In this document: one piece after another, positions 10,353-40,170 of the stretch
Position numbering within the stretch: the first letter of the stretch is position 1
Layout: each line of letters opens with the position of its first letter
Translations under genes and position numbers: made by a program
Assembly (NCBI GenBank): GCA_040437565.1
Contig: JBDOQK010000004.1
Location: 186,001 to 250,000, forward strand
Direction: 5' to 3'
DNA: 64,000 nucleotides
From: Albugo candida
Lineage: Eukaryota
The notes under the pieces: generated by a model
Told to the model about the DNA's origin: nothing
Database searches by the model: none
The model's input: the letters and a program-made list of their open reading frames with translations, nothing else

Positions 10353-10680
10353 ATGTGTTTGGCTCTTTTTACTCTGTTTTGCATGTGTACAAACATTTGT
10401 AGCTTGGTGTCGTTACAAACTGTCCGCATCCAGGTATTGTTCCGAAAGAGTATCGAATGCATACTGCAGACATTTGGTGACAAAAACCGCTGTTAGAATA
10501 CTCTGGTGCACTTAAGGTCCTACAGCTATACAGCCACGATAGGTCTCATTTGTACGAAATTGTGTCATACGATTACAAGTTCTTTGTCTAAAAAGTAAAG
10601 AGGGGTATGAGGTGCAAGCTGACTACCGAATCATCGAGCCAATACTGCTGGCTTTGATGTCGTCGAAGTGGTTCTTAAAA
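10353..10680 (+). pseudogene. Possible relic of a secreted CCG/CHxC-type effector
   Basis: Signal-peptide-like MCLALFTLFCMCTNICS, then SIECILQTFG (10449-10478), one base (AGT vs TGT) from CxxCxxxxxG; the frame breaks afterwards. Confidence 0.3.
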
Positions 10681-15524: not shown

Positions 15525-16470
15525 AGCTGTTCCTACTTCCTCCGGACCCCAAAGGGAGTCTACTGTTAGTGTCACCTTGCTTTTCTCATTTTCAAGTGAA
15601 ACGTTTGTTCTAATGCAGCAACTTTTTATTAGTAGCCTAACCTTCGGAATTGGAGTCTGAAAACCTCTGTTTTCGTTTCTTAGTGCAACATTCAAAGTGG
15701 GTCCGCCTCACACGATCAGGCTCTTGGAAAGGTGGCTTCGCATGTGGAGATATCAACACAATACTTAGCGGAACTTGGGTCAAATGCTTCTTATACTGAA
15801 TGAGCTTATTCTTGGTTTTTTCTAAGTCGCCTTCGGCTTTTCTCAACCGTTTTTTTGTCTTTTTCGAGTTGAGAGACGCAACTGCTCAAGCGGGAAGAGA
15901 AATCTAGAATGATCGCCTTAAGCGCTTCAGTTTCCGATTCTTGCTAGTTGACTCGATGCAAAAGCGTACTACGTTCTTTCAATACTTGTCCATATTGCGT
16001 ATTGATGTGATGTGATGTCGCTTGTTCCTGAGGAAACGACGTGCCGAGCTTCAGAATCTCTTCTTTGACAATCAAGATTTCCTTTATGGGCTGGTCATTC
16101 TCTCTTGCAAGTCGTGATATTCTGTCGGATGAGTTTAAACTTGGTCGGGTCGTTCTCGGAGTTGAATCCCGAATGGGTATCCCCGCCGACTCGGCGTTTG
16201 TTGGCGGGTGTAATACGTTCTTTCTACTATTGTTCGATTTGCGTATTTGTTTTGAAGCAAACATCGTGCCGAGCTTCATGATTCGCTTCTTTGAGGATCG
16301 AGTCTTCCTTTCTGAGCTGACCATTCCCTCTTTCAAGTCGAGGTATTTTGTCGGATGAGTCTTAACTTGGTCGGGTCGTTTTTGGAGTTGATTCTCGAAT
16401 GGGTACGTATCCCCACCAACTCGGCGATGTTTGCGGGTGTCATTAGCTGGTTTGTTGGTCGTGTTGACAT
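15525..16470 (-). pseudogene. Coiled-coil family relic with an internal ~228-bp tandem duplication
   Basis: Relic ATG at 16470; units ~16255-16440 and ~16025-16212 align; shares the N-terminal TPAN..RVGG motif and the 3' gaagtaggaacagcta segment with copies at 16648 and ~30600 (N-terminal motif also at 29408). Confidence 0.7.
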
Positions 16471-16647
16471 TTTCGGAAATTGGTTAGTGAGACTGACCAC
16501 ACTCATATAGTATACATAAAATATGAGCTGCAGAATATGGAGAGCTCTTGCGAAGAGACCAAACTCAAAATGTCATTCTTACTTTGCCGTGTTTCAGATC
16601 TCCTAACAACGATCAACTTCTCTCGCCTTAATTACCAATTTCCAAGA

Positions 16648-17350
16648 ATGACGACACGGTCAGCAAACCAGCCGTTAACACCCGCCAACATGCGCCTTGT
16701 TGGTGGGGGATGAGAATCCCCATTCGGGACTCATATAAAGGCCAGCCTGACTAAGATTGAATTCCTCCGACAAGATACCTCAGCTTATTGAAGGAAGCGA
16801 AGAGCTTAAGACTGGAAGCATGCAACTACAAAATGATATACAAACGCTGTAGATAATAGTCGCTCAGAAGAAGTAACGTTCAATCATCATCTTCAATGAG
16901 CCGTACAGAAAACAGCATTCATGTTGATCCAATCAGGCACTACGAGTCAGAAGTAGCCTCGTTGAAAGAGGGCATTCGAAGCTCTTCTCACCCTAATTCA
17001 GTTGCGCCGGCAAACACGAGCAAAAAAAATCCCTTTTCGATAAGCCGAGGTTGACTTGCAACAAGCGAAGGACGCGCTTATTGAGTACAAAGTACACCTT
17101 AGCTGAGTTCTACTCTGTAGCACTTCGATCTCGCCAACTTCAAAATCACCTATCCAAGAATGTAAATCTGAAAGCAGTCGGTCTTGTACAAAAGCTATAA
17201 TATAGCGTCAAAAAATAAAGACAAAGGCCTTCACTCTCAGATTATCGAGCTACAAGCAACGAATAAGGAAGTTGCAGCGTCAGATAGGTCGTTTTACTGT
17301 TCAAAACAAAGACTTCCTCCCTTTGAAAACGGTTGGAAGTAGTACCAGCT
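16648..17350 (+). pseudogene. Coiled-coil family relic, head-to-head with the 16470 copy
   Basis: MTTRSANQPLTPANMRLVGGG* followed by frameshifted homologous sequence. Confidence 0.7.
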
Positions 17351-20751: not shown

Positions 20752-22110
20752 GGTTGAAAAGGTACCGAGAAATAGGCACAAGTGTACCGCTATGTAGAAT
20801 TATGTATACCACCCTTGATAGGACGATGTGATTAGTCATGCATTCCTATGCATCCGCCTACAGAAGGATGTGTATGCTTACTCTTCAGCCCCCATTGAGG
20901 TATTTGCAGATTGTGGGCCTTTCATGGTCTTGTTTTGCGAGATCATATCATTGGAAATGCTGCTTCTGTACCACATACCTCAGAGGTAAGCATGAGGCTC
21001 GAAGATGTAGCGTGGCATTTCACAAAGTTTACTACTCTCTCCTTGTGTCATTTGCTCCAACGACACATAGAATCGCCATATTAGTAGAAAGACGAGTTCT
21101 AAAAGGCATACAGTCACCTAAAGAGTTGAATAATTTTTATTTCCTACTTTCTATTTGCATCTTGATAATATCAACAGGAAGGCGAATACGTAAGAATGAT
21201 CATTAACATTCGGTCGAGGTGCTAGCAATATCTCTATGGTAGTAACAGGGACTGCTTATCTCGTTCCTTGCGGGTACTATTACATCGCTTACGCAATAAA
21301 TGCCACTGATAGTCTAAACCAAAGTCCAAGTGCAATCCCATAGAAAAACAGCGCTGGCAACAATGCTCGCAGACTCCTTTCATGAGAAACACAAGTGCAG
21401 CGACTCAAAATTGTGAACTTGATATTTTATTTTTGAGCGGGATGCTAGTGGGGCACGGTGTGTACCGGATGCTACAAGTCGTGAGCTCAATTTGCTTTGT
21501 TAAAAGCGAATGATTTCGAAGTATAGCTTTTTGATAGCAAATAATTTCGAACCTGGGATCTCATGATGTTTACCAACCTTGTTCTTGGAGTTAACCGCTA
21601 CTTAGAAAGTGCTTTGTGAAGGACTGAAAGAGCGACGTTTTCCTTGATCCTGCACTGTATTCGAAGCCACCATTACCAATCATGAATCCAATATTCCAAG
21701 GTACACAGGGCAAGAGGTGGCTAACCTGTGAGCTGCAGCAATATTCTTTGATCTCATTTCGGAAGTATTTGAGGCTACACGATTATAAAAATGGGCTTCC
21801 AATAGCGGTGTTTACAGTGAAGTAAAAATCAGCGACACCAGGATGAACGTACCACTTCCATGAACCTCTAGGCAAANNNNNNNNNNNNNNNNNNNNNNNN
21901 NNNNNNNNNNNNNNNNNNNNNNNNNNNNNNNNNNNNNNNNNNNNNNNNNNNNNNNNNNNNNNNNNNNNNNNNNNNNGACACATAGAATCGCCATATTAGT
22001 AGAAAGACGAGTTCTAAAAGGCATACAGTCACCTAAAGAGTTGAATAATTTTTATTTCCTACTTTCTATTTGCATCTTGATAATATCAACAGGAAGGCGA
22101 ATACGTAAGA

Positions 22111-23500
22111 ATGATCATTAACATTCGGTCGAGGTGCTAGCAATATCTCTATGGTAGTAACAGGGACTGCTTATCTCGTTCCTTGCGGGTACTATTACAT
22201 CGCTTACGCAATAAATGCCACTGATAGTCTAAACCAAAGTCCAAGTGCAATCCCATAGAAAAACAGCGCTGGCAACAATGCTCGCAGACTCCTTTCATGA
22301 GAAACACAAGTGCAGCGACTCAAAATTGTGAACTTGATATTTTATTTTTGAGCGGGATGCTAGTGGGGCACGGTGTGTACCGGATGCTACAAGTCGTGAG
22401 CTCAATTTGCTTTGTTAAAAGCGAATGATTTCGAAGTATAGCTTTTTGATAGCAAATAATTTCGAACCTGGGATCTCATGATGTTTACCAACCTTGTTCT
22501 TGGAGTTAACCGCTACTTAGAAAGTGCTTTGTGAAGGACTGAAAGAGCGACGTTTTCCTTGATCCTGCACTGTATTCGAAGCCACCATTACCAATCATGA
22601 ATCCAATATTCCAAGGTACACAGGGCAAGAGGTGGCTAACCTGTGAGCTGCAGCAATATTCTTTGATCTCATTTCGGAAGTATTTGAGGCTACACGATTA
22701 TAAAAATGGGCTTCCAATAGCGGTGTTTACAGTGAAGTAAAAATCAGCGACACCAGGATGAACGTACCACTTCCATGAACCTCTAGGCAAATTTTGCATC
22801 ATTGCAAGTACGTGGGAATGCGTGGTCTAAGTAGGTGGGACTCACATCCGCGATTATAAATCCGGTCAATGTTGCGATATCTCGGCCAATGATGTGACAA
22901 ACGTCGCAGACTCGTTCTTGAGTCCATTTGGCTCATAGATCACCCAAAGAAAGTGATGAGATGCGTTTCAGATGCAGACGTATATCATTCACTTGCTCAG
23001 GAGGAAAGACTGACTTTACCTGTTACCACTTCTCTGCCTCGGAGATCACAATGCTTCCTTAACCGACAAAAAATAAAAGTAGACTCCATGATCAATAAAA
23101 AAAACAGTCATTGCTTGGCAAGGATGTCATACGTAATGATGTTCGATCGATATTTCAAGTATCCGTTTTTGTTCCACGATCTCATTATAAGGCTAATTGT
23201 GCAGCACAGACTTCCCGCGAGCATATCACAAAGATTATTGGCTCCAACTCAGACATTATTACGGCTGTAAAACGGAAGAGATCCTTCGAATGGATCAGGA
23301 TGTAATCAACGCCGTTGATTGAAACAATTCCTCATACTTTTTTATCTGTCACTGGTTGTGGAACGATCTACGAGTACGGTGAACAAATAGTTGGGGCTTG
23401 GACGATTTCCCGTATTAAAGTCACCGAGCTGATAGTCTTCCAGCCACTAGAGCAAATCTAGGGGAATCTAACTAATGTAGGAGAAGAGGTTCTTTGTCAT
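22111..23500 (+). pseudogene. Degenerate paralog of the mitochondrial glycerol-3-phosphate dehydrogenase gene at 32853
   Basis: Collinear shared blocks accattaccaatcatga, cgacaccaggatgaacgta, gcctcggagatcacaatgcttcctt; many indels and stops. Its 5' part is also repeated at ~21197-21875 across a gap. Confidence 0.85.
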
Positions 23501-23621
23501 TGGACATGCTTTGTTTGATGCAACCTGATCAAGAAGCAAGAAGTATTCGATGGGCTGTGTGGTTAAAGAGTAATCTCACAACTCACGTACTATTCTACGC
23601 ACAATCGACGGCTCCTGATTC

Positions 23622-26600
23622 TACTTTACCCTCTGAGACAGGATGGTAGACGATCGCCCTGCTGGAGAACAAGCCGTTGCCGTTGACCCGTTATGCTTCA
23701 TGTTGGCGAAGACGACTAGGAGGGGAATACCGGGAATGGAGAGAGGTCTGTCGGCTGGAAGCTGCTTGATGACTTGCTGCATCAGCTGTGTCCGGACGAC
23801 CGCAAGGTAGATCGCAGTCGAAGCAATTTTCGACTTCAGCTCCACACGGGGCTTGCGGATTGCCTGCGTACTGTGAATTTCGAGGACGCAAGACCTGGTC
23901 TCGGTGCCTCATCGTCAGCGAAGAAAAGAACAAGCTGAAGAGCGTACGGTCTGTTGTCCCGGGTATCCCTGCGTGATGCTCTCGGGGTGCCGGTGAGCAG
24001 GAGCAGCATCTCGGTCGTGTTGTAGCACATCGAGGCGACCCATGCGAAGTCGGTAGGCGATTGATAGGGCTCACGCTTCAGCAGTCAAACGGACATGGCG
24101 TGAACCAGCACAAACTTCCAGTCCTCGAAGACGTCCAAGATGGAATCATTCCGGGAGTCGAACGCTAGTCACGTGGAAAGCAAGGACGTCATATAGGCAT
24201 GGAGGACACCATCCGCGTGCTGAAACGTCTCTCAGTCTCAACCCGGCTCTGACCGCCTGTTCAAGGGCCTAAGACTTTGTCGGCCCCTCCCTTCCACCGA
24301 TCGTACGGTTCATCGTCGTGACAGGGATCGGCAGGTGCGTCGAGATGGCTACGCAGCTTGTCAAGGGCAGGTGCCAGATGCCAACGAGGATAGTGGTTCT
24401 CGTTTGGTCGTACGTCGTGTGTTGTGCTCTGAATGACATACCTTATTCGATGCTGCTGCTCAGTCTCTTCTGCGTCCCGCACGCGGAAACGCCTGTCCCA
24501 TGAAGCGGCTCGTACGTGTTCCAGCAAACCTCTTAGCCTAGGCACACCCTCGTCGTCTTGCCCTATTTCAAGCTACGCATGCGACCACGTAGTCAGCGAA
24601 GTAGATCGCCTTGTGCCTCTCTTCCAGCACTTTCCCCTCCTCTCGCTCTCTAATAGAATTCCCGTCTATAAGGCTTATCACTGACGATGCACTCTCTAGG
24701 GAGGACGGTGGCAGACTTCAAGACATGCTTCCTAAGCCAGACCAACAGATTACGATGATTTCAGCTTGCTCACCCTGCGATATGATCTCTTGAAGACAGT
24801 ACGGCTTGTTAGCGCGACCATGCAAGCATGGAGGAACGGGTCGATCGCTCAACATGTCATCACAGCGCAGAGACGTGCCCTGACATACTGAAGATTTTTC
24901 GGTGTTCTGGAGGCGATGTGCACTACCTCGAGGGATACGTATCAAATGCTTGACAACGTCGACGTCTGCCTGTCGTCTCGTAGGGACATGCTAATCCGTA
25001 ACGTCTTACGGAGGCCTATTGCCGCATGGATGCTTCCAAGCTACTCGATGCCCAAGGCTGGACATCTAGTTGGATTGGCATCCACAAGACGCATAGATCT
25101 GCCTGTTGATCCCAGAGCACTTCATCTCGGGCATCCGGACAGTCCAGTATCGAGCGGTAGCCAGTAAGAGTGTGCATCGACATCGCTTCGCATACGTTGC
25201 ACGAAGTCCTGTTCGCATTCGTCTAGCGTCGCGTCCTCACGGCTGGCGTAGGGCGATGCAAGTCACTACTCATCGAGTAACCGTACATCGTTCGACCCTG
25301 GAGCAGAACAGTCATGACGCTGACTCGACGAAGATTTTGTAGATGCTTGGCAAGACGCCACAGCCACTAGTATGCTGGCTCGGTAGCCCCTTCCCATGGA
25401 AACGACGTCCTGTTGAACGTGTAGGCTGATGCGCAGAGCATGATGCACATGATGCGGCATGCGTTGAAGCCTCTCGGGGAAGCGGGATAGACCACCCAGC
25501 TCTACTCAATGTCGAAGGGGACATGCTGGTGAAGCGGTCCTTATGTAAGGACTTTNNNNNNNNNNNNNNNNNNNNNNNNNNNNNNNNNNNNNNNNNNNNN
25601 NNNNNNNNNNNNNNNNNNNNNNNNNNNNNNNNNNNNNNNNNNNNNNNNNNNNNNNAAAGTCCTTACATAAGGACCGCTTCACCAGCATGTCCCCTTCGAC
25701 ATTGAGTAGAGCTGGGTGGTCTATCCCGCTTCCCCGAGAGGCTTCAACGCATGCCGCATCATGTGCATCATGCTCTGCGCATCAGCCTACACGTTCAACA
25801 GGACGTCGTTTCCATGGGAAGGGGCTACCGAGCCAGCGTACTAGTGGCTGTGGCGTCTTGCCAAGCATCTACAAAATCTCCGTCGAGTCAGCGTCATGAA
25901 TGTTCTGCTCCAGCGTCGAACGATGTACGGTTACCCGATAGGTAGTGACTTGCATCGCCCTACGCCAGCCGTGAGGATGCGATGCTGGACGAATGCGAAC
26001 AGGACTTCGTGCAACGTATGCGAAGCGATGTCGATGCACACCACCCGGTCGTTACAATCACTCTCTTCTAAGTCCTTCCAGATATTCGTCCTCGAAGTAA
26101 GCACGCTTTCCACAATCCACACCTTTAGGACTGTATAGGTCCGCCTCACGGCCGACACTGAGCTATGGTTGCGCCACCGTACGAGGAGGTAGAAAGCGAC
26201 ACCGAGACGTCACCAACTGCGACGAGGTAAAGCCTGCTTCAGCTCCCATGTATGCGATGGCTGAGATAAGCAAGATAGCGAAGCTGGTGAGAAGAATCTC
26301 ACTGACACATCTGGGCCGTTGCAGCCTTGCAAACCCACTTGCCTAGCCGCACACGCCACACCTTGAAGCACACTTCAATGCGGACATCTAGGCGACTGCT
26401 AGGCGCTCAGAGTCTTGACCCTGTACTGCGACTGCCCCGAAGAGGTCAGAGCTGTCGTCAAGCTGGACATCCTGCGAACCAATTGCTCTATCAACGGCTA
26501 CATCGATTCGTCTATCCAGGGGGCTGACGACATGGGTGACATCCTCAAAGGCAAGTAGGCGCGCATTATTAAGTTCATTCCCGAGTCACATGGGTTTTCA

Positions 26601-29097
26601 AAACTCGATGTCGAAGGGAAGGGAACGATGACAGCAGCGACCTCCCGTTTAGCTCGTCTAGACAGCTCGTACTTGGACACGGACTTAGGTGGACCTCCAC
26701 GAATCTTCACCTCCTGCTCCTCCGACAGCTCACTAATCACCTACTCTATCGAGTAATATGCTCTTACACCTGTAATTATAAGTGGCACGTAGAATTGTAT
26801 GCGTTGATGTTCAGCTTGCCAAACGACACCTCGTCATCTACTGGTTTCCTCACCGATATGACGCCCATGTCGAGAAGCCGTCTACCACTCTCGTCGATGA
26901 TAGGATGCGCAATCGAACAGAGTACTTCGCGGCCAGGTGGTAAGATGCACTCTGAGACAATTTACAACGCGACAACGAGGTCACACAAGGCACGGAAGAT
27001 GTCGGACCTGGCAAAGTAGTCACGCACAGTATTCAGCGTCTGCCCATCGATAAGCGGAACCGAGGACTTGCTTGTGCGTCGAAAAGCCTCCATCAGGTAA
27101 GCGTCTTGCAGCACCTTTGAGCCGAGATGGGCGGCTTCGAATGCGCGGATCAATAGACCCGTATAAGCGCTTTGAATCGCTTCGACAAGCCTGGTCGGTA
27201 GCTTCTGCAGTCCTTGATTTCGGCGGCATTGCTCACGCATGTAACCAGGCGGATGATCATCGAGAAGAAAAATTTCATGTTCTGCGGGACATCCATTACG
27301 CATTGGTAGATATGCCGTTTGGAAAGTCTGTGGCGGACTACTTTTCCAAATCGATCATCCTGTCCATAATGCGCTCCTGAAAGGCTGAAATTCGTCTCAA
27401 CAAGCTGATGAAGTTTAAGTGGTACAGAGTGTCGCGTGCGTCAAGCGAGTCAGGATTTGATGCTTCCTCCCTTAACAACAGGTGCGTTAACTTCATGAAC
27501 CTGTCCGCCCTGAGTGTAGATCGAGATGTAGAACGCGTACAGGTGGCGCCGGTTCACGACTGGTTTCGTTGCAACTGCACGCAGTGGATCGTGTTCTCGT
27601 CACACCTTCGCAAAAGGAGAGAAAGGATGGAGACCTTCATGCATAGGTGCACTGACATCGTTCACGAATTGAAGTAGAATCAAATACGCGTCTCCGAGGG
27701 GTTCCCGTGGGTCGGCAACTCAAGCACGTCTTGTTGCAGACGGTGACTTCTCAGAGTGGTACGGTGACTCGCTGGGTGCCTGAAAAAGAAAGATCCCGTG
27801 TCAGTGTTCAAGAACCCTGATATCTGGCTAGGGAGTACAGCTTTTCTGGGACGAAGCTTTACTCCGGCGTGTCCGGCACGATCCAGCAGGCGTTGATGGA
27901 CAAGAGGAAGCATGGACCCGGGTCGCATACTTCCAGATTTCTCCTGTCGCTGCTCACCGGGAAGCAGTCATTCTTTGTCACGAGGGATACGAGTGGTAGA
28001 GTGGACGTCGAGTCGGGTAGCCTGACGTGCGGTACAGCGGTTGCTGCGCTAACAGGCTCGACGTCGCCCAGCTTAGGGATCCCGCTGAAAGGTCCTCGAG
28101 ATGCCTACTCTCCGTGAATCTTGGCTGTCACCTATCGCGCATCAGTGCCTCTAAGACGGGAGTAGTCGAGTTAGCGCACTCTCTGTTCTACTCCACGTAC
28201 GTCGATCCTGACGCTGCAATCCCCAGCTCGCTGAGCGTTAACTATCTCTCGAAGACGTAATCACCCGTCGTGCTCGCTGCCGCAAGAGATCGTCGGGCCC
28301 GTAGCCTGTAGCGGCACAACGTTGTGCACTGGGAAGAATTCGAGGCGGTCAGACTTTACTTCGTAAATTCAGTCGATGGATCCCTACGCAGACGCTTCTG
28401 GAGAAGTCGCTTATCTGCAGTGCATGCGAGTCCATGAAATGGAGGTACTGCAGAGAAGCCGCGTAGTAGTTCATGGACACGTTCAACAATTCTAACAGCG
28501 TGTTGACTTCGATGCATGCTTCCACATTGTGCGACAAGAGCCCATGGAGCTGATGAATAGGTAGGTCGAGCCACGATACGAGACTGACCGCATGCCCAAG
28601 ATGAAGTGTTTCAGGATCAGGTGGTAGGTGGGGAACATCTAGTCGTGGTAAGCACTGCCGAATGGGAAGCGGACCCGTGGCATGCTACCCCGTAACATAT
28701 TACGGAATCAGGTGTCCGACGTCGTGATCTTCGAACCCCGCTTCATCGTCTCAGTACCCTTCGAGACAGGATGGTAGACAATCGCCCTACTGGAGAACAA
28801 GCCGTCGTCGTTGACCCGCCTGCTGACTACTATGCCGTTCTCGTAGTAATGCTTCATGTTAGCAAAGACGACTAGGAGGGGAATGCTGGGAATAGAGAGA
28901 GTCTGTCGACTGGAAGCTGCTCGATGAATTGCTGCATCAGGGAGTCTGGACGAGCGGGAGGCAGGTCGCAGTCGAAGTAATCGTTGACGTCAGCTCTACA
29001 CGAGTCTTGCAGATTGCCTTCGTACATACCGAGGACGCAAGACCTGGTCTCGGTGGCTCATCGTCATCGAAGAAGGGGAACAGGTGGAAGAGCGTGC
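23622..29097. repeat. Diverged direct repeat pair (~320-340 bp): ~23622-23947 and ~28755-29097
   Basis: Both read gagacaggatggtagac.atcgccct.ctggagaacaagccgt...gacgactaggaggggaat...cgaggacgcaagacctggtctcggtg; the left copy lacks ~26 nt. Confidence 0.9.
25170..26041. repeat. Long inverted repeat (arms 25170-25555 and 25656-26041) centred on an N gap
   Basis: The arms are reverse complements over ~386 bp with about 10 substitutions, all in the outer half; the inner ~180 bp are identical. Confidence 0.9.
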
Positions 29098-29407
29098 AAC
29101 AGCCGTGCTCTCTACAACTAAAGCGATCTTGTTCGCCATCAGCTATTCATTCATTCAAGCGGCTTAGTACATCATTCTCATCTTAGTCAATTTATTATAA
29201 AAAAAACTACAAATGGTCACTTTCATTCTCCTTTGATCCTTCTGACTACGCTCATATATTTTACGATAAAGACGAGCTGCGGTGATGGAGAAATTCTTGC
29301 CAACAGACCAAATCTTCAGATAATTTCTTTATTCTTTTCTTTTCTTGACGTCCATCAAACCTCCTGTCGATCATCAGCTACACTCGCCTCACATACCAAT
29401 CTTGAAC

Positions 29408-29850
29408 ATGACAACACGCCGAGAAACCCAGACAATGACACCTGCAAACATACACCGCGTAGGCGGGGTACGTACCAATTCGCAACCCAATTCAAAGATC
29501 CACACGACCAAGGCTTACCTCATCCGACAACGTAGCTCAACTTGAGCGAGAAATGAAAAGATAAGAGGTGAAATCTAATTCTCAAGAACGAAGTTCAGAC
29601 GATCAAAAAGATGTTTGCCGAAGAACACGCGAAATCGCAGCAGCAAAGCAATCCACTTCAACAAGTCCAGGAAGACAAACTTTCCACGTCTCAGGCAGGT
29701 ACTATGCTACTTACAATTAACGGCCTCTTGTAAGTCTATCCGGTCCTTTCGATATAAACAAAAAGGTCTCACAGCTTTTGGACATCATAGACTTGTAAAA
29801 TATCGTTCAAATTTAGCAAAGCCAGCACCCATCGATAGGCAATCAGGTTA
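29408..29850 (+). pseudogene. Coiled-coil family relic
   Basis: MTTRRETQTMTPANIHRVGGV; ctcatccgacaa shared with the 16.3 kb copy. Confidence 0.65.
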
Positions 29851-30594
29851 AAGCTGGGGTTAATAGAATCTGATCCACTCAGCCCTATATAGACAACAAA
29901 GTCGAGCTCATTGATGTTCTCTTCATTTGGACTCATAGTATTATAATCATTGTAGTAAAGCGCGTATTATATACCATGTCTGCTTGTGTCGATTGAAAAA
30001 GTAATTACAAAATTTAGACTTCCACTTGTTGCTTGTAGCTCGATTCTAATCATTCCAATTATCCATTTTGACTATAGGAATGCACAAAGTCCTCGTTGAT
30101 ACAGAACGATTCCCGCACAAGATCTTCAATTGTCTCCTTGATCTGCTGATCCTGATCAATGTCGAGAAACATGGAGATGACTCAAGTAGCAGTATCCATG
30201 TAAAGGATCAAGAGACGTACACCCGAGCGCCAATACGCAGAACTATCACGACAATCATAATGAGTGGATTAGTGCATGGATTTCGAGGTTATATCAAACA
30301 CGTGAGCAAGCGCCATCCAAGACAGCCTATCGTGAGTATCCGCAACATGTCTTGGTCCCATCAATATACACTTCAATTCCACTTGTCTGGGCCAATATGT
30401 GTCGATAGAATCTACAACTGGTCACTTTCATTCTCCGTTGCTCCTTTGCATTCTCTGTCTGACGATACCATTATGTATGCGATAAATTATGAGCTGCACA
30501 AGATGGAAAATTCTGGTCTAGACCAAACTATAGCATTCTTTTCGATTTCGAATCTCCTGTAGCTTCCCTTTCCTCAACAAACAATTTCATAAAG

Positions 30595-31305
30595 TAACGA
30601 CGCCTCGAAAAATAACTCAGCCATTGAAACCCGCCAGCATGCGCCGCATTGGTGAGGACTACGTCCCCACCAAGGACTCACTAAAGAGGTCGACACGAAT
30701 AAGATTGAACCCATCCCATTTAATAGCTCAGCTTACTCAAGAAATGAAGAGCTAGGGGTAGAAACGAGCAGCTGGAAACCGAAAGTCAAACGCTGAAGAC
30801 TATGTTTGCTCAACAAAGAAGCGATATCCAAGTATCATGTTCAACACGATCTGAAAGAAAGCAAAGCGATCGTGCGTCAAGTCGGTAAGTCCGAGGCGGA
30901 AGTAAGCTCGCTGAAGGCAAGCATTTAGGGGCACTCTTCGTGCTTATCCAGCTGCGCCGGCAAATTCGAAATCGAGCAAGAAAATGCCCGATCTAGACAA
31001 GTCGATGCTGACTTGCAAAAATTAAGGAACGCGCTCCATGTATACAAAGAGAAACCGGGACCAGCTCTCCCCAGTAGCATTCCGATATCGCCTAATTCAG
31101 AGCCACTCCATTCGAGACTTGAACCGTGGTGGGCAACCAGCCACTTTGTTCAAAAGCTGATCATTGCATTGATAACTGAAAACAAAGATCTTCCGCATCA
31201 AATCATCAAACTAAAAGCAACTAACGAGAAATTGCATCGTCAGATAAACGTTCTTCTGTCACAAGCAGCAAACTCCTGTCCTGGGCCGTAGGAAGTAGGA
31301 AAAGC
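30595..31305 (+). pseudogene. Coiled-coil family relic
   Basis: QPLKPASMRRIGEDY near 30618; ALITENKDLPHQIIKLKATNEKL...GP*EVGKA matches the 3' ends of the 15.5 kb and 17.3 kb copies. Confidence 0.65.
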
Positions 31306-32852
31306 TATTATTGATCGTTATTAATCATTCAAATATCAATCGTTTCTCTTTTATCATTCAATTTGTTCGCTTGCTAATACTGCCCCGTTACGAGATTTTC
31401 GGTCGAATGTTTTAGATAAATCCGTGAATATCATTCTGAATATATGTCCGCTCATGCAAGAACTTGAGCATGATACTAATTGGCAGGAGTGACGCTGGCT
31501 GACGAACCATAAAGTACAACCGTGGTAAAGGTGATACTGCTCGTGAAATACATCAATACGGTAGATTGTATCTATTCGTTAAGCCACCTCTGAGGACGAG
31601 ACGCTAATTTTGCATTAGCTCTAAAGATACTTTGCAGGGATTCCCAACTTGGAACCAAGTTAATTTATGAAGCAAGTACAAAACCGTGGCTTTATCCTCT
31701 ACAATGGAACACGAAAATCAATGTTTCAGTAAACCTTCCGACAACACAATACGCAAAATTACATCAACCTTCTATGATATGGTAAGACATCATCAAGTCT
31801 TCGACTTGGTCCACGATTCTCTACGAAGGCACCTCGACTTTTGCAAGAATGCAAAACTGCAACTAAAGGCACTTTTTTGGGCACACCAGATACCATGTAG
31901 CAATGCAAGTACTATATTCTTCTTACAGCGATCCCGATACCAATCCTGAATGCAATGCTTTCTTGGCACAAACGCATGAGTTCGCGATCGAAATGTCAAA
32001 CCGACTTTATCAATACAGCTTTCTCATCAAAAATGAGCACGACTTAATGGATGGAATACAGGCATCAACAAGAGATGAATAATATCGGCATAATGGAACT
32101 TTCATCGTCGATACTNNNNNNNNNNNNNNNNNNNNNNNNNNNNNNNNNNNNNNNNNNNNNNNNNNNNNNNNNNNNNNNNNNNNNNNNNNNNNNNNNNNNN
32201 NNNNNNNNNNNNNNNATTAGCTCTAAAGATACTTTGCAGGGATTCCCAACTTGGAACCAAGTTAATTTATGAAGCAAGTACAAAACCGTGGCTTTATCCT
32301 CTACAATGGAACACGAAAATCAATGTTTCAGTAAACCTTCCGACAACACAATACGCAAAATTACATCAACCTTCTATGATATGGTAAGACATCATCAAGT
32401 CTTCGACTTGGTCCACGATTCTCTACGAAGGCACCTCGACTTTTGCAAGAATGCAAAACTGCAACTAAAGGCACTTTTTTGGGCACACCAGATACCATGT
32501 AGCAATGCAAGTACTATATTCTTCTTACAGCGATCCCGATACCAATCCTGAATGCAATGCTTTCTTGGCACAAACGCATGAGTTCGCGATCGAAATGTCA
32601 AACCGACTTTATCAATACAGCTTTCTCATCAAAAATGAGCACGACTTAATGGATGGAATACAGGCATCAACAAGAGATGAATAATATCGGCATAATGGAA
32701 CTTTCATCGTCGATACTGCAAAGTGCAGCAGTCCTTTCATCAGACAAAGTACTAAATTGCGATTATAGACCAACTTTATCCAGATATTCGCTTTTAGAGC
32801 ATTCATTTTGTAATTGGACAAAACAATAAAGATCTAACGCGAATCCGAAAGA

Positions 32853-35299
32853 ATGGCATCGTTTCGATTCAGCCGAACTGCAAGAAATATTACTTTAGGA
32901 ATAGCCGGGACCGGTTCTCTCGCTCTTTGCGGGCATCATTACATAACTTCTTCTGTAGTGAATGCCAAAGAAGATCCAAAGCGATTTCTTAGTGCAGTCA
33001 CTTGTGAAGACGGCTCTATCATCAATCCTTGCGAAATTCCTTCGCGGGAAACACAAGTACAGAGACTTCGAAATCGTAAATTTGACATTTTAGTCATTGG
33101 AGGAGGGGCTACTGGCACAGGATGTGCTTTGGATGCTACAACTCGTGGGCTTAAAACAGCTTTAGTGGAAGCGAATGACTTTGGAGCTGGAACTTCAGGA
33201 CGATCTACGAAACTTATACATGGAGGCATTCGATACTTGGAAACAGCTTTTAAGAAACTTGATTATCCATCCTTGAAATTAGTTTATGAGGCACTGGAAG
33301 AACGAGCTTTTTTCCTTGGATCTGCACCATACATGAATCGACCATTACCAATCATGATTCCAATTTACAAATGGTGGGAAGTCCCTTACATGTGGGTTGG
33401 TGCAAAAGTCTATGATCTCGTTGCAGGATCGAAACGTTACGTACCAAGCAGCCACTTTATCAACGCAGACGAAGCTTTATTTCAATTTCCAATGCTACAA
33501 AAAAAGGGGCTGAAAGGAGCGGTTATCTACTATGACGGTCAAACTAACGACACCAGGATGAACGTATCTCTTGCATTGACCGCTACACAAAATGGTGCAA
33601 CTATTGCTAATTATGTGGAGGTGCTTGATATTTTGAAGGACGCTAATGGTAAGGTATGTGGTGCTCACGTCCGCGATAGAGAGTCAGGTCAAGAGTGGGA
33701 TGTTTCCGCCAGTGCTGTCGTAAACGCGACAGGACCTTTTACTGATTCCATTCGTCTCATGGATGACCCAAACAAGGAAAAGATTTGCGTACCAGCTGCA
33801 GGTGTTCATGTCGTCTTGCCCGACCACTTCAGTCCTCATCGAATGGGGCTAATTGTTCCTAAGACGTCCGATGGCCGCATCCTGGTAAGATTCTCATCTT
33901 TCTCGGCGTCAAACACAATGACTTCAAGTTTTCATGTCCTTTAGTTTTTCTTACCATGGGAGAATGCAACTTTAGCTGGTACCACTGATTCAGCCTCGGA
34001 GATCACAATGCTTCCTTCACCGACAAAAACAGAAGTAGATTTTATCATCAATGAAGCGAATCGTTATCTGGCGAAAGATGTCACACGAAACGATGTGCGA
34101 TCCGCATGGTCAGGTATCCGCCCTTTAGTCCGCGACCCACGTCATATGGCNNNNNNNNNNNNNNNNNNNNNNNNNNNNNNNNNNNNNNNNNNNNNNNNNN
34201 NNNNNNNNNNNNNNNNNNNNNNNNNNNNNNNNNNNNNNNNNNNNNNNNNNCGACAGGACCTTTTACTGATTCCATTCGTCTCATGGATGACCCAAACAAG
34301 GAAAAGATTTGCGTACCAGCTGCAGGTGTTCATGTCGTCTTGCCCGACCACTTCAGTCCTCATCGAATGGGGCTAATTGTTCCTAAGACGTCCGATGGCC
34401 GCATCCTGGTAAGATTCTCATCTTTCTCGGCGTCAAACACAATGACTTCAAGTTTTCATGTCCTTTAGTTTTTCTTACCATGGGAGAATGCAACTTTAGC
34501 TGGTACCACTGATTCAGCCTCGGAGATCACAATGCTTCCTTCACCGACAAAAACAGAAGTAGATTTTATCATCAATGAAGCGAATCGTTATCTGGCGAAA
34601 GATGTCACACGAAACGATGTGCGATCCGCATGGTCAGGTATCCGCCCTTTAGTCCGCGACCCACGTCATATGGCTGGCTCTACTGCACAGATCTCACGTG
34701 AACATGTCGTGGAGATTTCTGACTCCAACTTGGTGACTATCGCAGGCGGAAAATGGACGACATTCCGTCGTATGGCTCAAGATGCAATCGATGCCGTTAC
34801 CTTTGCCGTACCTGAAGTAGGCAAGAAAGCAGATACCTGCCAGACCAAAAACATTCATCTTATCGGTGCTGATCGCATTGGAGTGGTTTGCAACAAGAAG
34901 TTTGACAAAATCACAGTCACATTACGCGAAAATTATCATCTCGATAAAGATGTGGCAGAACACCTCATGCGGAATTACGGAACGCGTGCTCTGCAAATTG
35001 CAGAAATTGGAAAACGAGGATTTTTGGATCGCAAATCTGGTACTTTTCCACGCCGTCTTCATCCAAAGTATCCATATCTCGAGTCAGAAATCGTCTTTGC
35101 AGTACAACAGGAATATGCTATAAGGGTGACGGATATCATTGGTCGACGAATGCGTCTTGCATTCATTGATTCTGAAGTGGCTTTCCAGCTAGCACCAGGT
35201 ATTGTGCATCTAATGGGAGATCTTCTGAAATGGTCCAAAGATCGTCGACAGAGAGAATTGGAAGAATGTGAACAGTATCTGAACACAATGCGGCAATAG
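32853..35299 (+). CDS. GPD2: Mitochondrial FAD-dependent glycerol-3-phosphate dehydrogenase
   Basis: FDILVIGGGATGTGCALDA, GTSGRSTKLIHGGIRYLE, VVNATGPFTD, AWSGIRPLV, IAGGKWTT; intron 33885-33944. 33727-34150 is repeated at 34251-34674 across a gap (probable assembly overlap). Confidence 0.95.
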
Positions 35300-36820: not shown

Positions 36821-39800
36821 ATGGTGCAACATGCACAAAGTCATTCTCCGCAATGTCAGGAACATCGAAATATAGAGACAGAACTGGAAGGTAAGTTTCT
36901 CGCAACTGCGCTTTTGGCTCTCAGCAATGTATACTTATCACATTAGACACAATCAGTCTACCGGAAGAAATAGTTTGGTCTCTTTTGGACGATGCGATAT
37001 ATTCGGATTCTGAGCACAAATTGTATCGGCATTATGCTCCAAATGAGACATTGCCGCGATATTACCTGAGAGGGAATTTACCGTTTCCTGCGGACACTGT
37101 GTTTGACACTTTATTCGATAGTGCTTACAGTGAGCGCTGGAAACCGATGGGAATCAAAGGAACAAAAAATTTAGCCATAATCGATCTTCAGCCGTTAGAC
37201 AAGATCTTGCATGTGACCTGTGAGCTTCCGTGGCCTTTTATACCCAGAGACTATGTCTACCAGCGTTATCTCCGATACTATAAGCATTTAGATAAGGATA
37301 TGTATGTAATGGTGTCACGTGCTGTTTTCGATGGAAGGGCACCCGAGAGTGAAGGGACGAAGCGAGTCGAGATTTATTCCTCCCGAATACTGATTCGAGA
37401 AGCCGAAAATGGATCGTGTGATATATTCATGGAATACCAGGATGACACACACTTCAGCATACCTGGATACATTTTCAAAGTCGCTATTGCCTTGATTTTA
37501 CCTGTCTTCTTCAGAGAATTGAAAACGGCATGCGAGGAACTCGATGAATATAAATGTCAACTCGAAACACATAATGGAGCAGAAATGCCGTCCGTTTCCC
37601 TGCGTAAAGTGACTCGGAATTCGGAGAATCAAAATAGTAGTGACGGACAAACAATGGCCGAAATGGATAGATCGAATTTTAACGTAGATGATGAAAATGA
37701 ATCCAGATGTGATCGAAGCCTCCTCATGAAGGAAGCAGCGGATACGGGTAGAGTCCTGAAAGCAGCGCCAAACACCTCGAAACTAGGCATGACAGCGGAA
37801 TTCACAGTTGAATTCTATAAAGAGGAAACTGGGCTACGCATTTCAGTTGAGACTGGTACAGGCGATGTCATCGTTGACAAGTATGACAGACATCTGAAAG
37901 AATACGCATCAATGAGCTTCTTGAAATTACGTGAAGGATCTCGTTTGATGACTGTCAATGGGATGCGGATCTCAGGTCTTCCGTACAATGATGTATTAGT
38001 GTGCTTGAAAAATTCATCAAGACCCATGAAGCTAAGCTTTCAAAATGTCGGTTTGAGTAAAACACAATTCCAAAGTAACGCACGTATCATTAAGCATCCG
38101 AAAGCACGACTGCGATGCGTTGTGCCTCCTGATAACAACTTCAAATTTATCGCCAGCCTCAAACCTTTTCGAAGTAGAAATGGATTAACAGGAGCAATTC
38201 TACAAGAAAGCATCTCTTTACAAACGCGATCGACTATATTCCGAACCGCGCCAAAGTATATCACAGTTGCTAGCGGCTTTGTGTTACAAAAGGTAGATGG
38301 CTGCAATGTACTCTCCGTCTCATATGCCGACATCCGACTTTTACTGATGCAAGACAAAGACATACCAAAAAATGTCACTTTGTACGCAACTGACGCTGTG
38401 GAGGAATTACAAGACCTTGAAAGGGCTTCATTCTTATCCAGTTGGTCTTCATCGATATCGCAGGCTATGCCAAGATATAGCTCGAGCTCCAACTCAAGCT
38501 CCTGGTCACTACGATCAAGGAAATCTGGCGATTTAGAACATGAAGGACCGATCCAACAGAGCTCTGATGAAGATCCCGACGATCAGGTGGTATCCTACAA
38601 GGAATGTCTTTTGGATTATTCGGATATTGTGATCTCTGAAGATAACGTAGATTGGGCCTGGAAGCATATACAAGCGTTGCGAGTCGACGAACGGCTAATC
38701 TCTGTGAAAATACTGCTGGACAAACTGGAGATGTTTTTCAGCCAAATGGATAAACGGCAAGCATCCTTGCAAATCTGCAAAAACGTACAAACCGCAATGG
38801 AACAAGACACAATCGCTCTCACACAAATATTAAAACGTTATGCTATCGTACAGGAAGCTTTGCATGAATTCAATTATGAAAAAGAAGCTGAATGGCAATT
38901 TGCTCAGTCGTACCTCGGAGTATCGACCTTTTGGAAGCCAGGTGAAAACGGCACAATTTGGCTTAAGATGGATGGATTGATTGAAGGTGCTGACATTCTC
39001 AATACACTCGCTGTTATCCGAGAAATCGACTTGTACCGACTCTGGGCGCCATTTTGCACAATCTCTGAGGTGCTCAAAGAAGAGAGCCGAGTCGACTTAC
39101 TGGCATACTTGTGCGTCTCACTGCCAATCCTGACTCGCGATGCGGTATTGCACGCGTTTGGTGTGAATGCTTGCTATGAGCATCGTTGTATCTTGTTACT
39201 TGGGCAATCGGCATCCGACGATATGATACAAGTTCCAAAAATGAAAGGATGGAATGTCGACCGCATAGACATACGTGGTTTTCGAGCCAAGATTGAACCA
39301 ATCGAGCTTTCTAAGGCTCAGGCATGTATTGTTGTCAACATGGATATCAAATGCTCGATTCCAAAAAGCTTGCTGAATTATGGAATTCGCAAAGGAGCTG
39401 GTCTTATTCATCATCTCATTTCTAGGCAGGCCGTAAAGATCGAAAAAGCTTGCAGAGAAAACATTTTTGATGAGCACGTGAAACGGATTCATACCGATCC
39501 CTCTAATGTGTATTCCTGGTTACGACCTCGTCTAAGGCACTGGTTTGAGTACAAAGAAAAAGGGTGTTTGGCCTCACCTTTGCCGCTTGATTCCAGCTAT
39601 AAAAAAGCATCTCCGGCAACGAGCAAGCAACCAAATTCAAGTCAGAGTGTGGCTAACGACCCATCTCCATGCACACAAGCGATCGGAGATGAAGCCAAAC
39701 AGGTTCCAGAATTACTGACTGTATCAATGTCACCACATAAGCGAATGCTTACATGGAGTACTTGGGGCACATTGTCAGTTCTTTCGCTTCTCTATCTTCT

Positions 39801-40170
39801 CCTTTCACTTGATCTCAACCACCCGCTATGGATAACTTGTGCCAGCAAATTTTTGTTTTTGTGTTCGTTTGCACAAGCTGGCTTTCAGTTGATACCACGG
39901 CAAAAAAGCACACCCAAGACTGCGCTACCATCGATACCACCATCATATAACGTATGGGTGGAAAGGGTCATGTATGCAATTGCATATGATGTGTTGAGCA
40001 CATGTCTTGCTCGAGCATGGGTACATCGCGATCAAGCTGGGTGGACATGGGTCTTCAGCGGTGATGGACATCGGAGATCGGAAAATATATTCCTTGTCAC
40101 TAGCTGCATTGCATTCATAGGGGTGACGTTTGTCTTGGATGTAAAAGGAGTTGATGAGCGGAGCGGCTAA
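36821..40170 (+). CDS. START - PDZ-like - START domain protein with C-terminal transmembrane helices (paralog A)
   Basis: Exon 1 36821-36890, intron 36891-36946, then a long ORF: LPWPFIPRDYVYQR (START), GSRLMTVNG...SSRPMKLSF (PDZ), IREIDLYRLWAPFC...LTRDAVLH (START), hydrophobic C-terminus. Confidence 0.88.

Follow-up and report, generated by a model that had tools for sequence, protein, structure and literature searches.

A GC-rich island of decayed, virus-like gene fragments in the genome of Albugo candida

Composition and gene content of the island

The stretch of Albugo candida DNA analysed here, hereafter referred to as the window, is 64 kb in length and contains one GC-rich block (n = 1 of its type), located at positions 23628-29095 (5368 non-N bases). 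Its GC content is 53.8% vs. 42.6% in either 10-kb flank and 43.1% in the remaining window, and the shift at its edges, at 23.60 kb and 29.10 kb, is approximately 100 nt wide. To the left of the island lies a GPD2-like pseudogene (22094-23316) with 65-76% nucleotide identity to an intact gene at 32836-34798.

The island consists of broken reading frames throughout, on both strands, and 3838 of 5327 nt (72%) were assigned to pseudogene fragments of five gene families (Table 1). All fragments are truncated mid-gene, and frameshifts and/or stops were found in every one of them. The tblastn E-values of 4.5e-62, 7.2e-49 and 5e-84 indicate that these matches did not arise by chance.

Table 1. Features of the GC-rich island (window coordinates; L001, metagenomic relative described in the text)
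Feature	Position	Strand	Evidence
RNA polymerase beta, fragment B (left direct-repeat copy)	23628..24198	-	aa 309-506 of P0045; tblastn 65-82% identity, E 4.5e-62
Island DNA without assignment	24199..25105		53.9% GC
Helicase protein, short N-terminal piece (weak evidence)	25106..25156	+	aa 44-60 of P0003; tblastn against island only, 64.7% over 17 aa, E 0.003
173-aa ORF homologue, left palindrome arm	25109..25501	-	aa 23-149 of L001 ORF; tblastn against whole window, E 1.4e-10
Head-to-head inverted repeat, centred on N gap	25170..26041		arms 25170-25555 and 25656-26041, 386 nt, 97.4% identical
173-aa ORF homologue, right palindrome arm	25710..25967	+	aa 23-111 of L001 ORF; tblastn E 5.7e-9
334-aa family, N-terminal piece	26165..26310	+	aa 1-52 of P0001; tblastn 62-69%, E 5.7e-9
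RNA polymerase beta, fragment C (C-terminus)	26397..26600	+	aa 739-814 of P0045; tblastn 51% identity, E 1.6e-15
334-aa all-alpha protein family, near full-length pseudogene	26618..27406	-	aa 44-332 of P0001; tblastn 60-82%, E 5e-84
Beta-prime-like subunit fragment (probable)	27698..28194	+	aa 356-524 of 599-aa L001 ORF; tblastn 29% over 131 aa
Helicase protein, N-terminal part	28277..28677	-	aa 25-161 of P0003; tblastn E 1.2e-22
RNA polymerase beta, fragment A (right direct-repeat copy)	28702..29095	-	aa 393-524 of P0045; tblastn 76-85%, E 7.2e-49

Three fragments belong to the gene of an RNA polymerase beta subunit, P0045 (814 aa), which matches Pfam RNA_pol_Rpb2_6 with 36.8 bits (cut-off 23.4 bits) and NCBIfam rpoB_arch at 6e-13. 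Fragment A is distributed over three frames with 1 stop, fragment B over three frames with 2 in-frame stops and a 9-codon deletion, and fragment C has 2 stops and a 9-codon deletion. Both ends of the island fall inside this gene, at aa 506 and aa 393. The probable beta-prime-like piece was recognised from a single tblastn match (E 7.9e-4 for the whole window, 3.8e-5 for the island only) to an ORF carrying Rpb1 domain 2 (Pfam RNA_pol_Rpb1_2, 7.2e-9). The larger helicase piece occupies two frames and contains stops, and the P-loop helicase domain of P0003, which starts near aa 200, is missing from the 64-kb window; in P0003 itself aa 199-306 match TIGR01613 (P4-family primase C-terminal) at 2.1e-9, and the protein matches the PHROG family phrog_1156 (DNA primase) at 2.4e-7. 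The near full-length pseudogene of the 334-aa family is spread over three frames with 3 in-frame stops; to this family also belonged the initial database match of a 130-aa ORF of the island (92% identity over 39% of the ORF).

Further support for the assignments came from L001, a 23.7-kb metagenome contig whose gene content was read from 18.3 kb. Comparison of 14 L001 ORFs with the whole 64-kb window placed all 10 HSPs with E < 1e-3 within 23.7-29.1 kb, the next best match having an E of 0.12, and beta fragment B was also matched by the L001 ORF 8302-10791. In L001, the 173-aa ORF is followed by the 334-aa family gene, which is convergent with the beta subunit gene (6828-8270 on the plus and 8302-10791 on the minus strand). 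Likewise, the N-terminal piece of the 334-aa family comes after the 173-aa ORF in the island, and beta fragment C lies tail to tail with the 334-aa family pseudogene; synteny with L001 is thus retained inside pieces and lost between them.

Two sets of repeats were found. A direct repeat is located at the ends of the island (23627-23945 vs. 28755-29095, 77.6% over 348 columns), and the span shared by its copies, aa 393-506, is an internal coding segment of the beta subunit gene; the left copy has additional upstream codons corresponding to aa 309-392 of P0045. No disabling mutation is common to both beta copies. The arms of the inverted repeat are much more alike (97.4%). The gap at its centre (100 N, 25556-25655) is flanked by loose ends at 25555 and 25656 that are mutual reverse complements in three DNA sequencing runs, X1, X5 and X6, in all of which the region splits into short contigs; the arms reach into the gap by at least another 174 nt, giving a total arm of at least 560 nt. 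It should be added that stretches of exactly 100 N occur 13 times in the window, and that two other gaps are bordered by 100% identical direct duplications, which indicates imperfect scaffolding.

The segment without assignment has a size that would suit the N-terminal third of the beta subunit; its comparison with aa 1-312 of P0045 gave Smith-Waterman scores of 30-37, equal to the shuffled null (37.2 +/- 4.5), and no similarity. Pfam searches of six frames of 23401-29298, with stops as X, returned 0 families at E <= 10, and accordingly none for reverse transcriptase (RT), RNase H, integrase, protease, transposase or RdRp.

These results agree with the initial annotation of this DNA in respect of a sharply bounded GC-rich island, an adjoining truncated GPD2 pseudogene, paralogous plus-strand pieces (five in Table 1: beta fragment C, the beta-prime-like piece and one piece each of the helicase, 173-aa and 334-aa families) and a lack of RT, RNase H, integrase and transposase motifs. 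Its long minus-strand reading is indeed frameshifted coding sequence, but it comprises pieces of three genes, interrupted by a plus-strand piece, and not one gene. The second diverged copy with extra upstream codons was recovered at 23627-23945, whereas its stated extension to 24.6 kb was not recovered. As for the peptides quoted there, LSIPSIPLLVVFANMKHYY falls in an RNA polymerase beta piece, LSHNVEACIEVNTLLELLNVSMNYY in the helicase piece, and LNTVRDYFARSDIFRALCDL and IAHPIIDE in the 334-aa protein family; these four have database relatives, and RFMKLTHLLLREE lies in an island stretch without assignment.

Junctions and intact relatives

Each of X1, X5 and X6 has a contig spanning 22500-25199 and a second one spanning 26012-30500 (in X6, to 29675). 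The depth of island vs. flank was 122 vs. 116, 8.5 vs. 7.75 and 57.5 vs. 73, respectively, and at least half of the sampled words were present in 13 of the 24 listed runs. Since both host/island junctions are bridged by contigs of three DNA runs at single-copy depth, the insertion is real and chromosomal.

Three gene families of the island (P0001, P0003 and P0045) have intact members in many public assemblies; 6 of 10, 6 of 9 and 7 of 15 cluster members, respectively, are located on contigs of 17442-17456 nt. A sister cluster includes an Albugo laibachii Nc14 protein, and its contigs are 17624 and 17851 nt in length. Moreover, X6 contains short contigs at depths of 2268 and 1388, vs. 57-73 for nuclear contigs, which are 90-95% like the beta and helicase pieces of the island; the related sequence is thus at about 20-40 times nuclear depth. 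The depth profile of X5, with the same species label, is flat.

L001 encodes Rpb1-like and Rpb2-like ORFs, a P0001-family gene, a homologue of P0003 (37% identity over 422 aa, E 2e-78) and an ORF matching the RNA/DNA-primed Pfam family DNA_pol_B (1.6e-38) as well as archaeal PolB/Pol delta. The best PDB matches of its RNA polymerase beta subunit are archaeal and eukaryotic enzymes. Within its 18.3 kb, neither a capsid gene nor a packaging ATPase was recognised, and transposase, integrase and reverse transcriptase were not found. No capping enzyme was recognised.

Judged from gene content, the donor of the island is best read as a small autonomous dsDNA virus-like element that has a multisubunit RNA polymerase of its own as well as a P4/D5-type helicase. 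A DNA polymerase is seen, by sequence, in the metagenomic relative L001 only. The recurrent contigs of about 17.45 kb, the one high-depth run (X6) and the gene content together lead us to infer that the donor is extrachromosomal. Our literature searches returned no description of a virus-like Albugo element of about 17 kb.

In the portions available of PMC8472843 and PMC6211774, cytoplasmic linear virus-like elements (VLEs) of yeasts, of the pGKL2 type, are similarly small DNA elements the size of linear plasmids, in the 13-24 kb range, with a multisubunit-type RNA polymerase, a helicase and a family B DNA polymerase (the latter seen here in L001) and no capsid recognisable so far. They differ, as far as the available text of PMC8472843 goes, in their DEXDc/HELICc helicase (P4/D5-type P-loop in the Albugo element), in a large RNA polymerase subunit of ~987 aa with a small one of ~130 aa (here separate subunits, beta of 814 aa and, in L001, beta-prime-like of 599 aa), in a DNA polymerase that carries a terminal protein, unlike the archaeal PolB/Pol delta-like one of L001, and in their capping enzyme.

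Origin and fate of the island

The reading we favour, with a probability of roughly 0.78, is that of a dead nuclear insertion composed of rearranged, mid-gene-truncated fragments of a virus-like DNA element, which decayed after steps of capture and duplication. The donor would replicate and transcribe outside the nucleus or as an episome, using its own RNA polymerase, and end joining would have inserted pieces of its DNA at a chromosome break; we infer the latter because the ends are mid-gene and terminal and target-site repeats are absent from the island. Fragments of yeast killer plasmids (NUPAVs) and organelle DNA enter chromosomes in the same manner. An inverted duplication of the fold-back type, with one or more additional duplications or a second capture, and neutral decay of the whole block may have followed. 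The endogenous viral element proposed in the initial annotation therefore stands in so far as the DNA is foreign, virus-like and coding, fragmented, in both orientations and partly multi-copy; its donor, however, is a DNA element and not an RNA virus. The data do not establish the several related viral variants proposed there. The two beta copies have no disabling mutation in common, and a single capture that was later duplicated and decayed fits as well as two separate captures.

It is possible, albeit unlikely, that the donor is a large mobile element of the nucleus, about 17 kb long and present in many copies, and that the island is one of its old copies, since broken up and rearranged. Repetitive sequence comes out of an assembly as separate contigs with a constant size and raised depth, as seen here, so that a young multi-copy nuclear element would produce contigs similar to those on which the extrachromosomal reading is based. 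Furthermore, other related contigs have nuclear depth (8.5 for record 4 of X1, with 4989 nt; 59.7 for record 21 of X5, with 3681 nt; 77.9 for a joint contig of X6), which indicates additional copies or fragments in the genome. Against this stand the lack of transposase, integrase and reverse transcriptase in both the island and the 18.3 kb of L001, the mid-gene position of both island ends, and the high depth in X6 that is not seen in X5. Moreover, a separate RNA polymerase, a primase-type helicase and a DNA polymerase (the last in L001) equip an element for life apart from the nucleus. Poxviruses and yeast VLEs, which have their own RNA polymerase, helicase and DNA polymerase, replicate and transcribe in this way. 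The equipment of such elements is treated in the available part of PMC6211774.

A rather doubtful alternative to an inert locus is that the inverted repeat and the opposed fragments might yield hairpin or dsRNA, and from it small RNAs silencing an extant element, as an RNAi immunity based on endogenous viral elements (EVEs), along the lines of the small-RNA locus suggested in the initial annotation. Arms of at least 560 nt would make a hairpin transcript possible, fragments of the same genes lie on both strands, and X6, a sample that also carries the island, contains a related element at high depth. The likeness of the arms relative to the end repeats could reflect maintenance or recent origin; it is, however, explained equally by a recent fold-back duplication or gene conversion. 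Even the best-conserved stretches reach no more than 90-95% likeness to the high-depth contigs, and the protein identity of the pieces is 51-85%, which is poor for siRNA targeting, and the island shows general neutral decay. In mosquitoes, piRNA clusters containing EVEs are defined small-RNA-producing loci with mostly RNA-virus fragments. Like them, the Albugo island combines viral fragments of either orientation into a patchwork at a single locus; it differs in its donor, a DNA element.

An integrated giant virus (Nucleocytoviricota), as reported in Phytophthora and Pythium, is a very improbable source. RNA polymerase subunits, a D5/P4-type helicase and a family B polymerase (in L001) overlap the core genes of the phylum, which the text available of the survey PMC5294986 records in 10 of 40 oomycete genomes. 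The inserts in Phytophthora parasitica (PMC8204020, as far as its available text goes) and in that survey are likewise partly decayed viral replication and transcription genes in a chromosome; their donors, however, measure hundreds of kb and have capsid genes, whereas the closest intact relatives of the island are on contigs of only ~17.45 kb and on the 23.7-kb metagenome contig, with no capsid seen and no packaging ATPase recognised in the 18.3 kb of L001. In addition, none of the 22 PDB matches of the L001 beta subunit is a poxvirus or asfarvirus entry, and the main text of PMC5294986 does not mention Albugo among its named oomycetes.

An assembly artefact or contamination, with contigs of a free element mis-scaffolded into a nuclear scaffold, is scarcely credible. 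The runs of N, the imperfect scaffolding elsewhere in the window and the gap within the island would favour it; both junctions are nevertheless in gap-free sequence, where single contigs from three runs of three studies bridge them with a depth like that of the flanks, X1, X5 and X6 each give independent evidence of the inverted repeat beside the gap, and the fragments are decayed, with only 51-85% protein identity to extant genes. The misassembly considered in the initial annotation is thus dismissed. Finally, an LTR retrotransposon or other known transposon, or an RNA-virus relic, has a negligible chance: direct repeats of about 340 nt do lie exactly at the two ends of the 5.5-kb block, but they are copies of a beta coding segment, none of the corresponding enzymes was detected in six frames at E <= 10, and the island is neither a known transposon class nor a host gene family.

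The dead insertion has its closest parallel in yeasts, for which the available portions of PMC4431711 and PMC8472843 describe nuclear capture of cytoplasmic VLE DNA at various stages of degeneration. Yeast NUPAVs, too, are fragments of the transcription and replication genes of autonomous elements in nuclear chromosomes, variously degenerated, with a base composition unlike that of the host and without transposition machinery. In Albugo the host is an oomycete, the donor is GC-rich and not AT-rich, the donor gene set differs, and a single locus combines scrambled pieces of several genes with a long palindrome. As a probable chromosomal relic of a small virus-like DNA element, the island most likely has no function today, which is the default reading.

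The island in the host chromosome

The island (positions 23628-29095) has a GC content of 53.8%, against 42.6% in each 10-kb flank and 43.1% in the rest of the window, and the shift takes place within about 100 nt at each end; no second GC-rich block of this kind was found in the 64-kb window. Short open frames are abundant on both of its strands, and its two ends form direct repeats (23627-23945 versus 28755-29095, 77.6% over 348 columns). Among the 13 gaps of 100 N in the window, one (25556-25655) lies inside the island and is bordered by a 386-nt inverted repeat with 97.4% identity.

The window was compared with contigs from four of the 24 listed public sequencing runs, namely the DNA runs X1, X5 and X6, which derive from three studies, and X16, possibly RNA, none of the 24 being listed as RNA; X1 is possibly the source run of the assembly. 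The stretch 25656-29300 was present in 20 of the 24 runs, 13 of which contained at least half of the sampled words. Single contigs covered 22500-25199 and 26012-30500 (to 29675 in X6) in each of the three DNA runs, where island and flank depths were alike (8.5 vs 7.75, 122 vs 116 and 57.5 vs 73). Both host/island junctions are thus bridged, and the block stands at single-copy nuclear depth. The interval 25.2-26.0 kb was represented by short contigs only in all three DNA runs. The contig ends protruding into the gap from either side (174 nt) were reverse complements of each other; the inverted repeat is hence real, and its arms, at least 560 nt long, are arranged so that they could give double-stranded RNA. 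Short X16 contigs at 2-5x matched the island at 99% or more, the flanks being covered just as patchily.

Two other gaps in the window differ from that of the island in having 100% identical direct duplications alongside (21062-21876 and 21977-22791, 815 nt; 31614-32115 and 32216-32717, 502 nt), each pair placed around a run of 100 N. These are most likely contig overlaps left unmerged by the scaffolder, and they make the 5' part of a GPD2-like pseudogene appear twice. It should be added that positions 23787 and 27940 carry T in the window and G in all compared DNA runs, the possible source run included, and are probably two assembly consensus errors.

Directly left of the island, 22094-23316 is a diverged copy of 32836-34798 (65-76% nucleotide identity), the intact original being a mitochondrial-type glycerol-3-phosphate dehydrogenase gene at 32838-35299 on the plus strand. 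The copy ends about 500 nt before the 3' end of the gene, and about 300 nt separate it from the island. An older segmental duplication may have received the insertion or may lie next to it. The right flank (29388-29642 and 30618-31246) resembles 16008-17286, located 13 kb upstream, at 65-75% nucleotide identity and partly in inverted orientation, which adds to the signs of old local duplication near the place of insertion. Farther to the right, two long, intron-free paralogous host genes of 1091 aa (36895-40170, plus strand) and 1190 aa (41719-45291, minus strand), with long conserved blocks in common, flank a 487-aa gene in head-to-head orientation, and a 771-aa host protein (52027-54339, minus strand) is identical to an NCBI entry and clusters with the A. 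candida prolyl oligopeptidase CCI10032.1.

Protein relatives and a metagenomic locus

Searches with Pfam returned no match for ten island ORFs and 0 families for all six frames with stops read as X (E<=10), and the initial annotation, which had recognised no reverse transcriptase, RNase H, integrase or transposase in the island, was borne out in this respect. A word-indexed search linked the 130-aa ORF at 27354-26965 to P0001 (334 aa) and P0002 (339 aa), both intact and without a Pfam match, the 111-aa ORF at 28684-28352 to P0003 (470 aa), and the 93-aa ORF at 28989-28711 to P0045 (814 aa).

Profile matches identify P0045 as the second-largest (beta) subunit of an RNA polymerase (Pfam RNA_pol_Rpb2_6, 36.8 bits vs a cut-off of 23.4; NCBIfam rpoB_arch, E 6e-13). 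The P-loop region of P0003 (aa 199-306) is, on similar grounds, the helicase module of P4/D5-type primase-helicases, as judged from PHROG DNA primase families (phrog_1156, E 2.4e-7) and TIGR01613, the P4-family primase C-terminal model (E 2.1e-9, below the model's own cut-off). Pfam gave weak P-loop matches only for P0003 (DUF5906, E 0.29), comparison of P0003 and of alignment A3 with PDB sequences gave no meaningful match, and a fold model of P0003 from a two-sequence alignment was unusable (pLDDT 28.2). The P0001 family counts 23 representatives, the query included, at E<=1e-3 among 1.84 billion. Its predicted fold is confidently all-alpha (pLDDT 77.8, core >90); there were 0 matches at E<=1e-3 in BFVD and 0 at E<=1e-3 in PDB Foldseek, and the best VIA-align wide hit (Z 5.1) was confined to the long N-terminal helix.

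A member of this family, P0014, led to L001, a locus of 18,267 nt with a GC content of 46% on a metagenome contig of 23,672 nt; a second locus, L002, duplicates part of L001 at 99.97% identity. L001 encodes a protein of 599 aa with Rpb1 domain 2, a 173-aa ORF directly followed by P0014, a convergent Rpb2-like protein of 829 aa (33% identity with P0045 over the whole length), a family B DNA polymerase of 750 aa (Pfam DNA_pol_B, E 1.6e-38) and a P0003 homologue of 463 aa (37% identity over 422 aa, E 2e-78). For the polymerase, DNA_pol_B (PF00136) was the sole Pfam match at E<=0.01, and the best PDB relatives were archaeal PolB and Pol delta. No capsid family was detected in the 10 largest ORFs of the 18,267 nt at E<=0.01 or in the eight L001 ORFs without family assignment at E<=5; a 660-aa ORF considered as a capsid candidate had no usable match in the Atlas, where its model is poor (pLDDT 0.31). 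Positions 1-386 of L001, at the contig end, carry tandem repeats (a 94-nt unit at 292-nt spacing, 99% identity, and two 49-nt units), which may suit a linear-replicon terminus or may simply mark where the assembly stopped.

Gene pieces in the island and the donor element

The island was mapped by tblastn with P0001, P0003, P0045 and 14 L001 ORFs as queries. The best E value in the island, 5e-84, was obtained against proteins residing on 17.45-kb contigs, and all ten HSPs of L001 ORFs with E<1e-3 fell inside the island, the best one elsewhere in the window having E 0.12. Genes could be assigned to 3838 of 5327 nt (72%), and the remaining 28% is island-like in composition (GC 50-59%).

Gene pieces located in the island by homology to P0001, P0003, P0045 and L001 proteins
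Feature	Position	Strand	Method
RNA polymerase beta aa 309-506 (copy B)	24198-23628	-	tblastn
907-nt stretch next to the beta aa 309-506 piece, without assigned gene			
Helicase-protein bit, 17 aa	25106-25156	+	tblastn
173-aa ORF, left palindrome arm	25501-25109	-	tblastn
173-aa ORF, right palindrome arm	25710-25967	+	tblastn
P0001 aa 1-52	26165-26310	+	tblastn
Beta C-terminus, aa 739-814 (copy C)	26397-26600	+	tblastn
P0001 aa 44-332	27406-26618	-	tblastn
Probable beta-prime-like piece	27698-28194	+	tblastn
P0003 aa 25-161	28677-28277	-	tblastn
Beta aa 393-524 (copy A)	29095-28702	-	tblastn

All pieces contain frameshifts or stops and end mid-gene, and neither the helicase domain proper nor any DNA polymerase was found in the tblastn map of the island. 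Within pieces the L001 order is kept, with the 173-aa ORF before the P0001-family gene and the latter tail to tail with beta; between pieces it is broken. The long minus-strand reading of the initial annotation dissolves into pieces of three different genes, and its presumed second copy is another piece of the beta gene. The island is thus made up of foreign fragments, rearranged and decayed, that lie in a chromosome; it carries no transposition genes, and both its ends lie mid-gene.

Positions 24150-25170 were also compared with the N-terminal third of beta, which is missing from the map, and scored no better than shuffles. The two overlapping beta pieces, A and B, have no disabling mutation in common. 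Both differ from P0045 at five positions, at two of which the outgroup L001 agrees with them, so that the shared states are no proof of common descent of A and B.

The donor is known here from proteins, recurrent contig sizes and run contigs. Cluster members of P0001 (6/10), P0003 (6/9) and P0045 (7/15) reside on contigs of 17,442-17,456 nt, which argues for a discrete element of about 17.45 kb that carries these three genes or more. P0002 belongs to a sister cluster, on contigs of 17,624 and 17,851 nt, which includes the Albugo laibachii Nc14 protein CCA27708.1, and other members of the P0001 family come from Peronospora belbahrii, from the chytrids Lobulomyces angularis and Zopfochytrium polystomum, and from metagenomes. 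In P. belbahrii two 334-aa-family paralogues (P0004 and P0043) share one contig of 30,110 nt, with accession numbers six apart, a pairing that may reflect a related element, or an insertion of one, in the genome of this downy mildew.

In run X6, short contigs matching the helicase and beta pieces with 90-95% likeness reached depths of 2268 and 1388 against a nuclear depth of 57-73, whereas X5, of the same species label, had a flat profile; a related element is therefore present at some 20-40x nuclear depth in one sample and not evident in the other. Other nuclear fragments elsewhere are indicated by contigs at nuclear depth that match short stretches only (X1 record 4, X5 record 21). In one X6 contig, 23785 is connected with 29068, although these are not homologous positions of the terminal repeats; with a shorter side of 25 nt, this contig is tentatively read as an additional related copy, the third, whose alignment is split in two, and not as a deletion allele. 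The longest X16 record examined measures 17,448 nt, the size of the element contigs, which we regard as a notable coincidence and not as evidence.

No relative of P0003, P0045, the L001 polymerase or alignments A4 and A3 was retrieved from IMG/VR in scans for exact peptide patterns, a dependence that makes this negative weak evidence. The literature searched, mostly open-access texts outside subscription journals, yielded nothing relevant on linear plasmids, DNA viruses or extrachromosomal and virus-like elements of Albugo, nor such a gene combination in a small element.

Known systems and the origin of the island

The initial annotation had proposed an endogenous viral element against a background of RNA viruses. 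This reading is partly supported: the island is a foreign, chromosomal and decayed virus-like insertion, and the donor is a DNA element and not an RNA virus. The closest precedent is the nuclear capture of cytoplasmic virus-like element (VLE) DNA in yeasts, the resulting NUPAVs being described in various stages of degeneration in the relevant passages of PMC4431711 and PMC8472843. As in pGKL2-like VLEs, an own RNA polymerase, a helicase and a family B polymerase (the last from L001 only) are combined on a small element. The VLE gene list in PMC8472843 comprises a DEXDc/HELICc (SF2) helicase and a fused large RNA polymerase subunit together with a small subunit, whereas the donor helicase matches P4-family primase C-terminal and PHROG primase models and its beta and beta-prime-like proteins are separate (814 and 599 aa, the latter from L001). 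Furthermore, the A+T content of yeast VLEs is given as extreme (>75%) in PMC4431711, as opposed to 53.8% GC in the island and 46% in L001, and the VLE polymerase is protein-primed with a terminal protein, while that of L001 matches DNA_pol_B and archaeal PolB/Pol delta. The donor works like the yeast VLEs but is placed outside their family, from which it departs in its helicase, in the build of its RNA polymerase, in the type of polymerase and in base composition.

Likeness to the Nucleocytoviricota consists in the core genes for PolB (in L001), D5-type helicase and RNA polymerase subunits in the donor and L001, of which the island itself contains RNA polymerase pieces and an N-terminal helicase piece only. 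That phylum is defined by a double jelly-roll capsid, a packaging ATPase and genomes of tens to hundreds of kb. Neither the capsid nor the ATPase was recognised in the 18.3 kb of L001, and the intact relatives sit on contigs of only 17.45 and 23.7 kb. Phytophthora and Pythium are named in the main text of a survey of eukaryote genomes for giant-virus genes (PMC5294986), where Albugo is never mentioned.

Polinton/Maverick elements and polinton-like viruses are defined by a protein-primed PolB, an integrase and capsid proteins, none of which turned up in the island or among the L001 ORFs searched (18.3 kb). RNA polymerase genes are not known to belong to the Polinton/Maverick gene set. The reading as an LTR retrotransposon was rejected on the empty six-frame Pfam search and on the terminal direct repeats, which are coding RNA polymerase beta segments.

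We propose that a replicon living apart from the chromosomes, with its own RNA polymerase (and, in the relative, a DNA polymerase), would have been the source of the pieces, which would have been joined into a chromosome break by end joining. The palindrome could have formed by a fold-back type of inverted duplication and the two overlapping beta pieces by duplication or a second capture, followed by drift of the whole block. The locus is most likely an inert relic; a small-RNA role of the palindrome is possible on structural grounds, as far as the sequence goes.

In a bolder reading, the island may be the footprint of a small (17-24 kb), autonomous double-stranded DNA virus-like lineage, not found described, whose RNA polymerase has beta and beta-prime as separate subunits and whose helicase is of the P4/D5 type, the relative having in addition a family B polymerase that is RNA-primed. 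This lineage would live in oomycetes and, by its family members, in chytrid fungi, and would stand between giant viruses and cytoplasmic linear plasmids, and the palindromic two-stranded patchwork would act as a hairpin source of small RNAs restraining a resident element in Albugo. To this reading as a whole we assign a probability of only about one in eight.

That nuclei can capture DNA of foreign replicons is already known, and the interest lies in the donor: the island is a pointer to an oomycete virus-like element that was not found described in the literature searched. For Albugo genomics, it accounts for small contigs of high depth and for GC-rich blocks of the "orphan" class, and it provides a presence/absence marker among isolates. 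If the donor is an autonomous cytoplasmic element, it would widen the host range and gene repertoire of plasmid- and virus-like elements with multisubunit RNA polymerases, and would bear on the relation of such elements to giant viruses.
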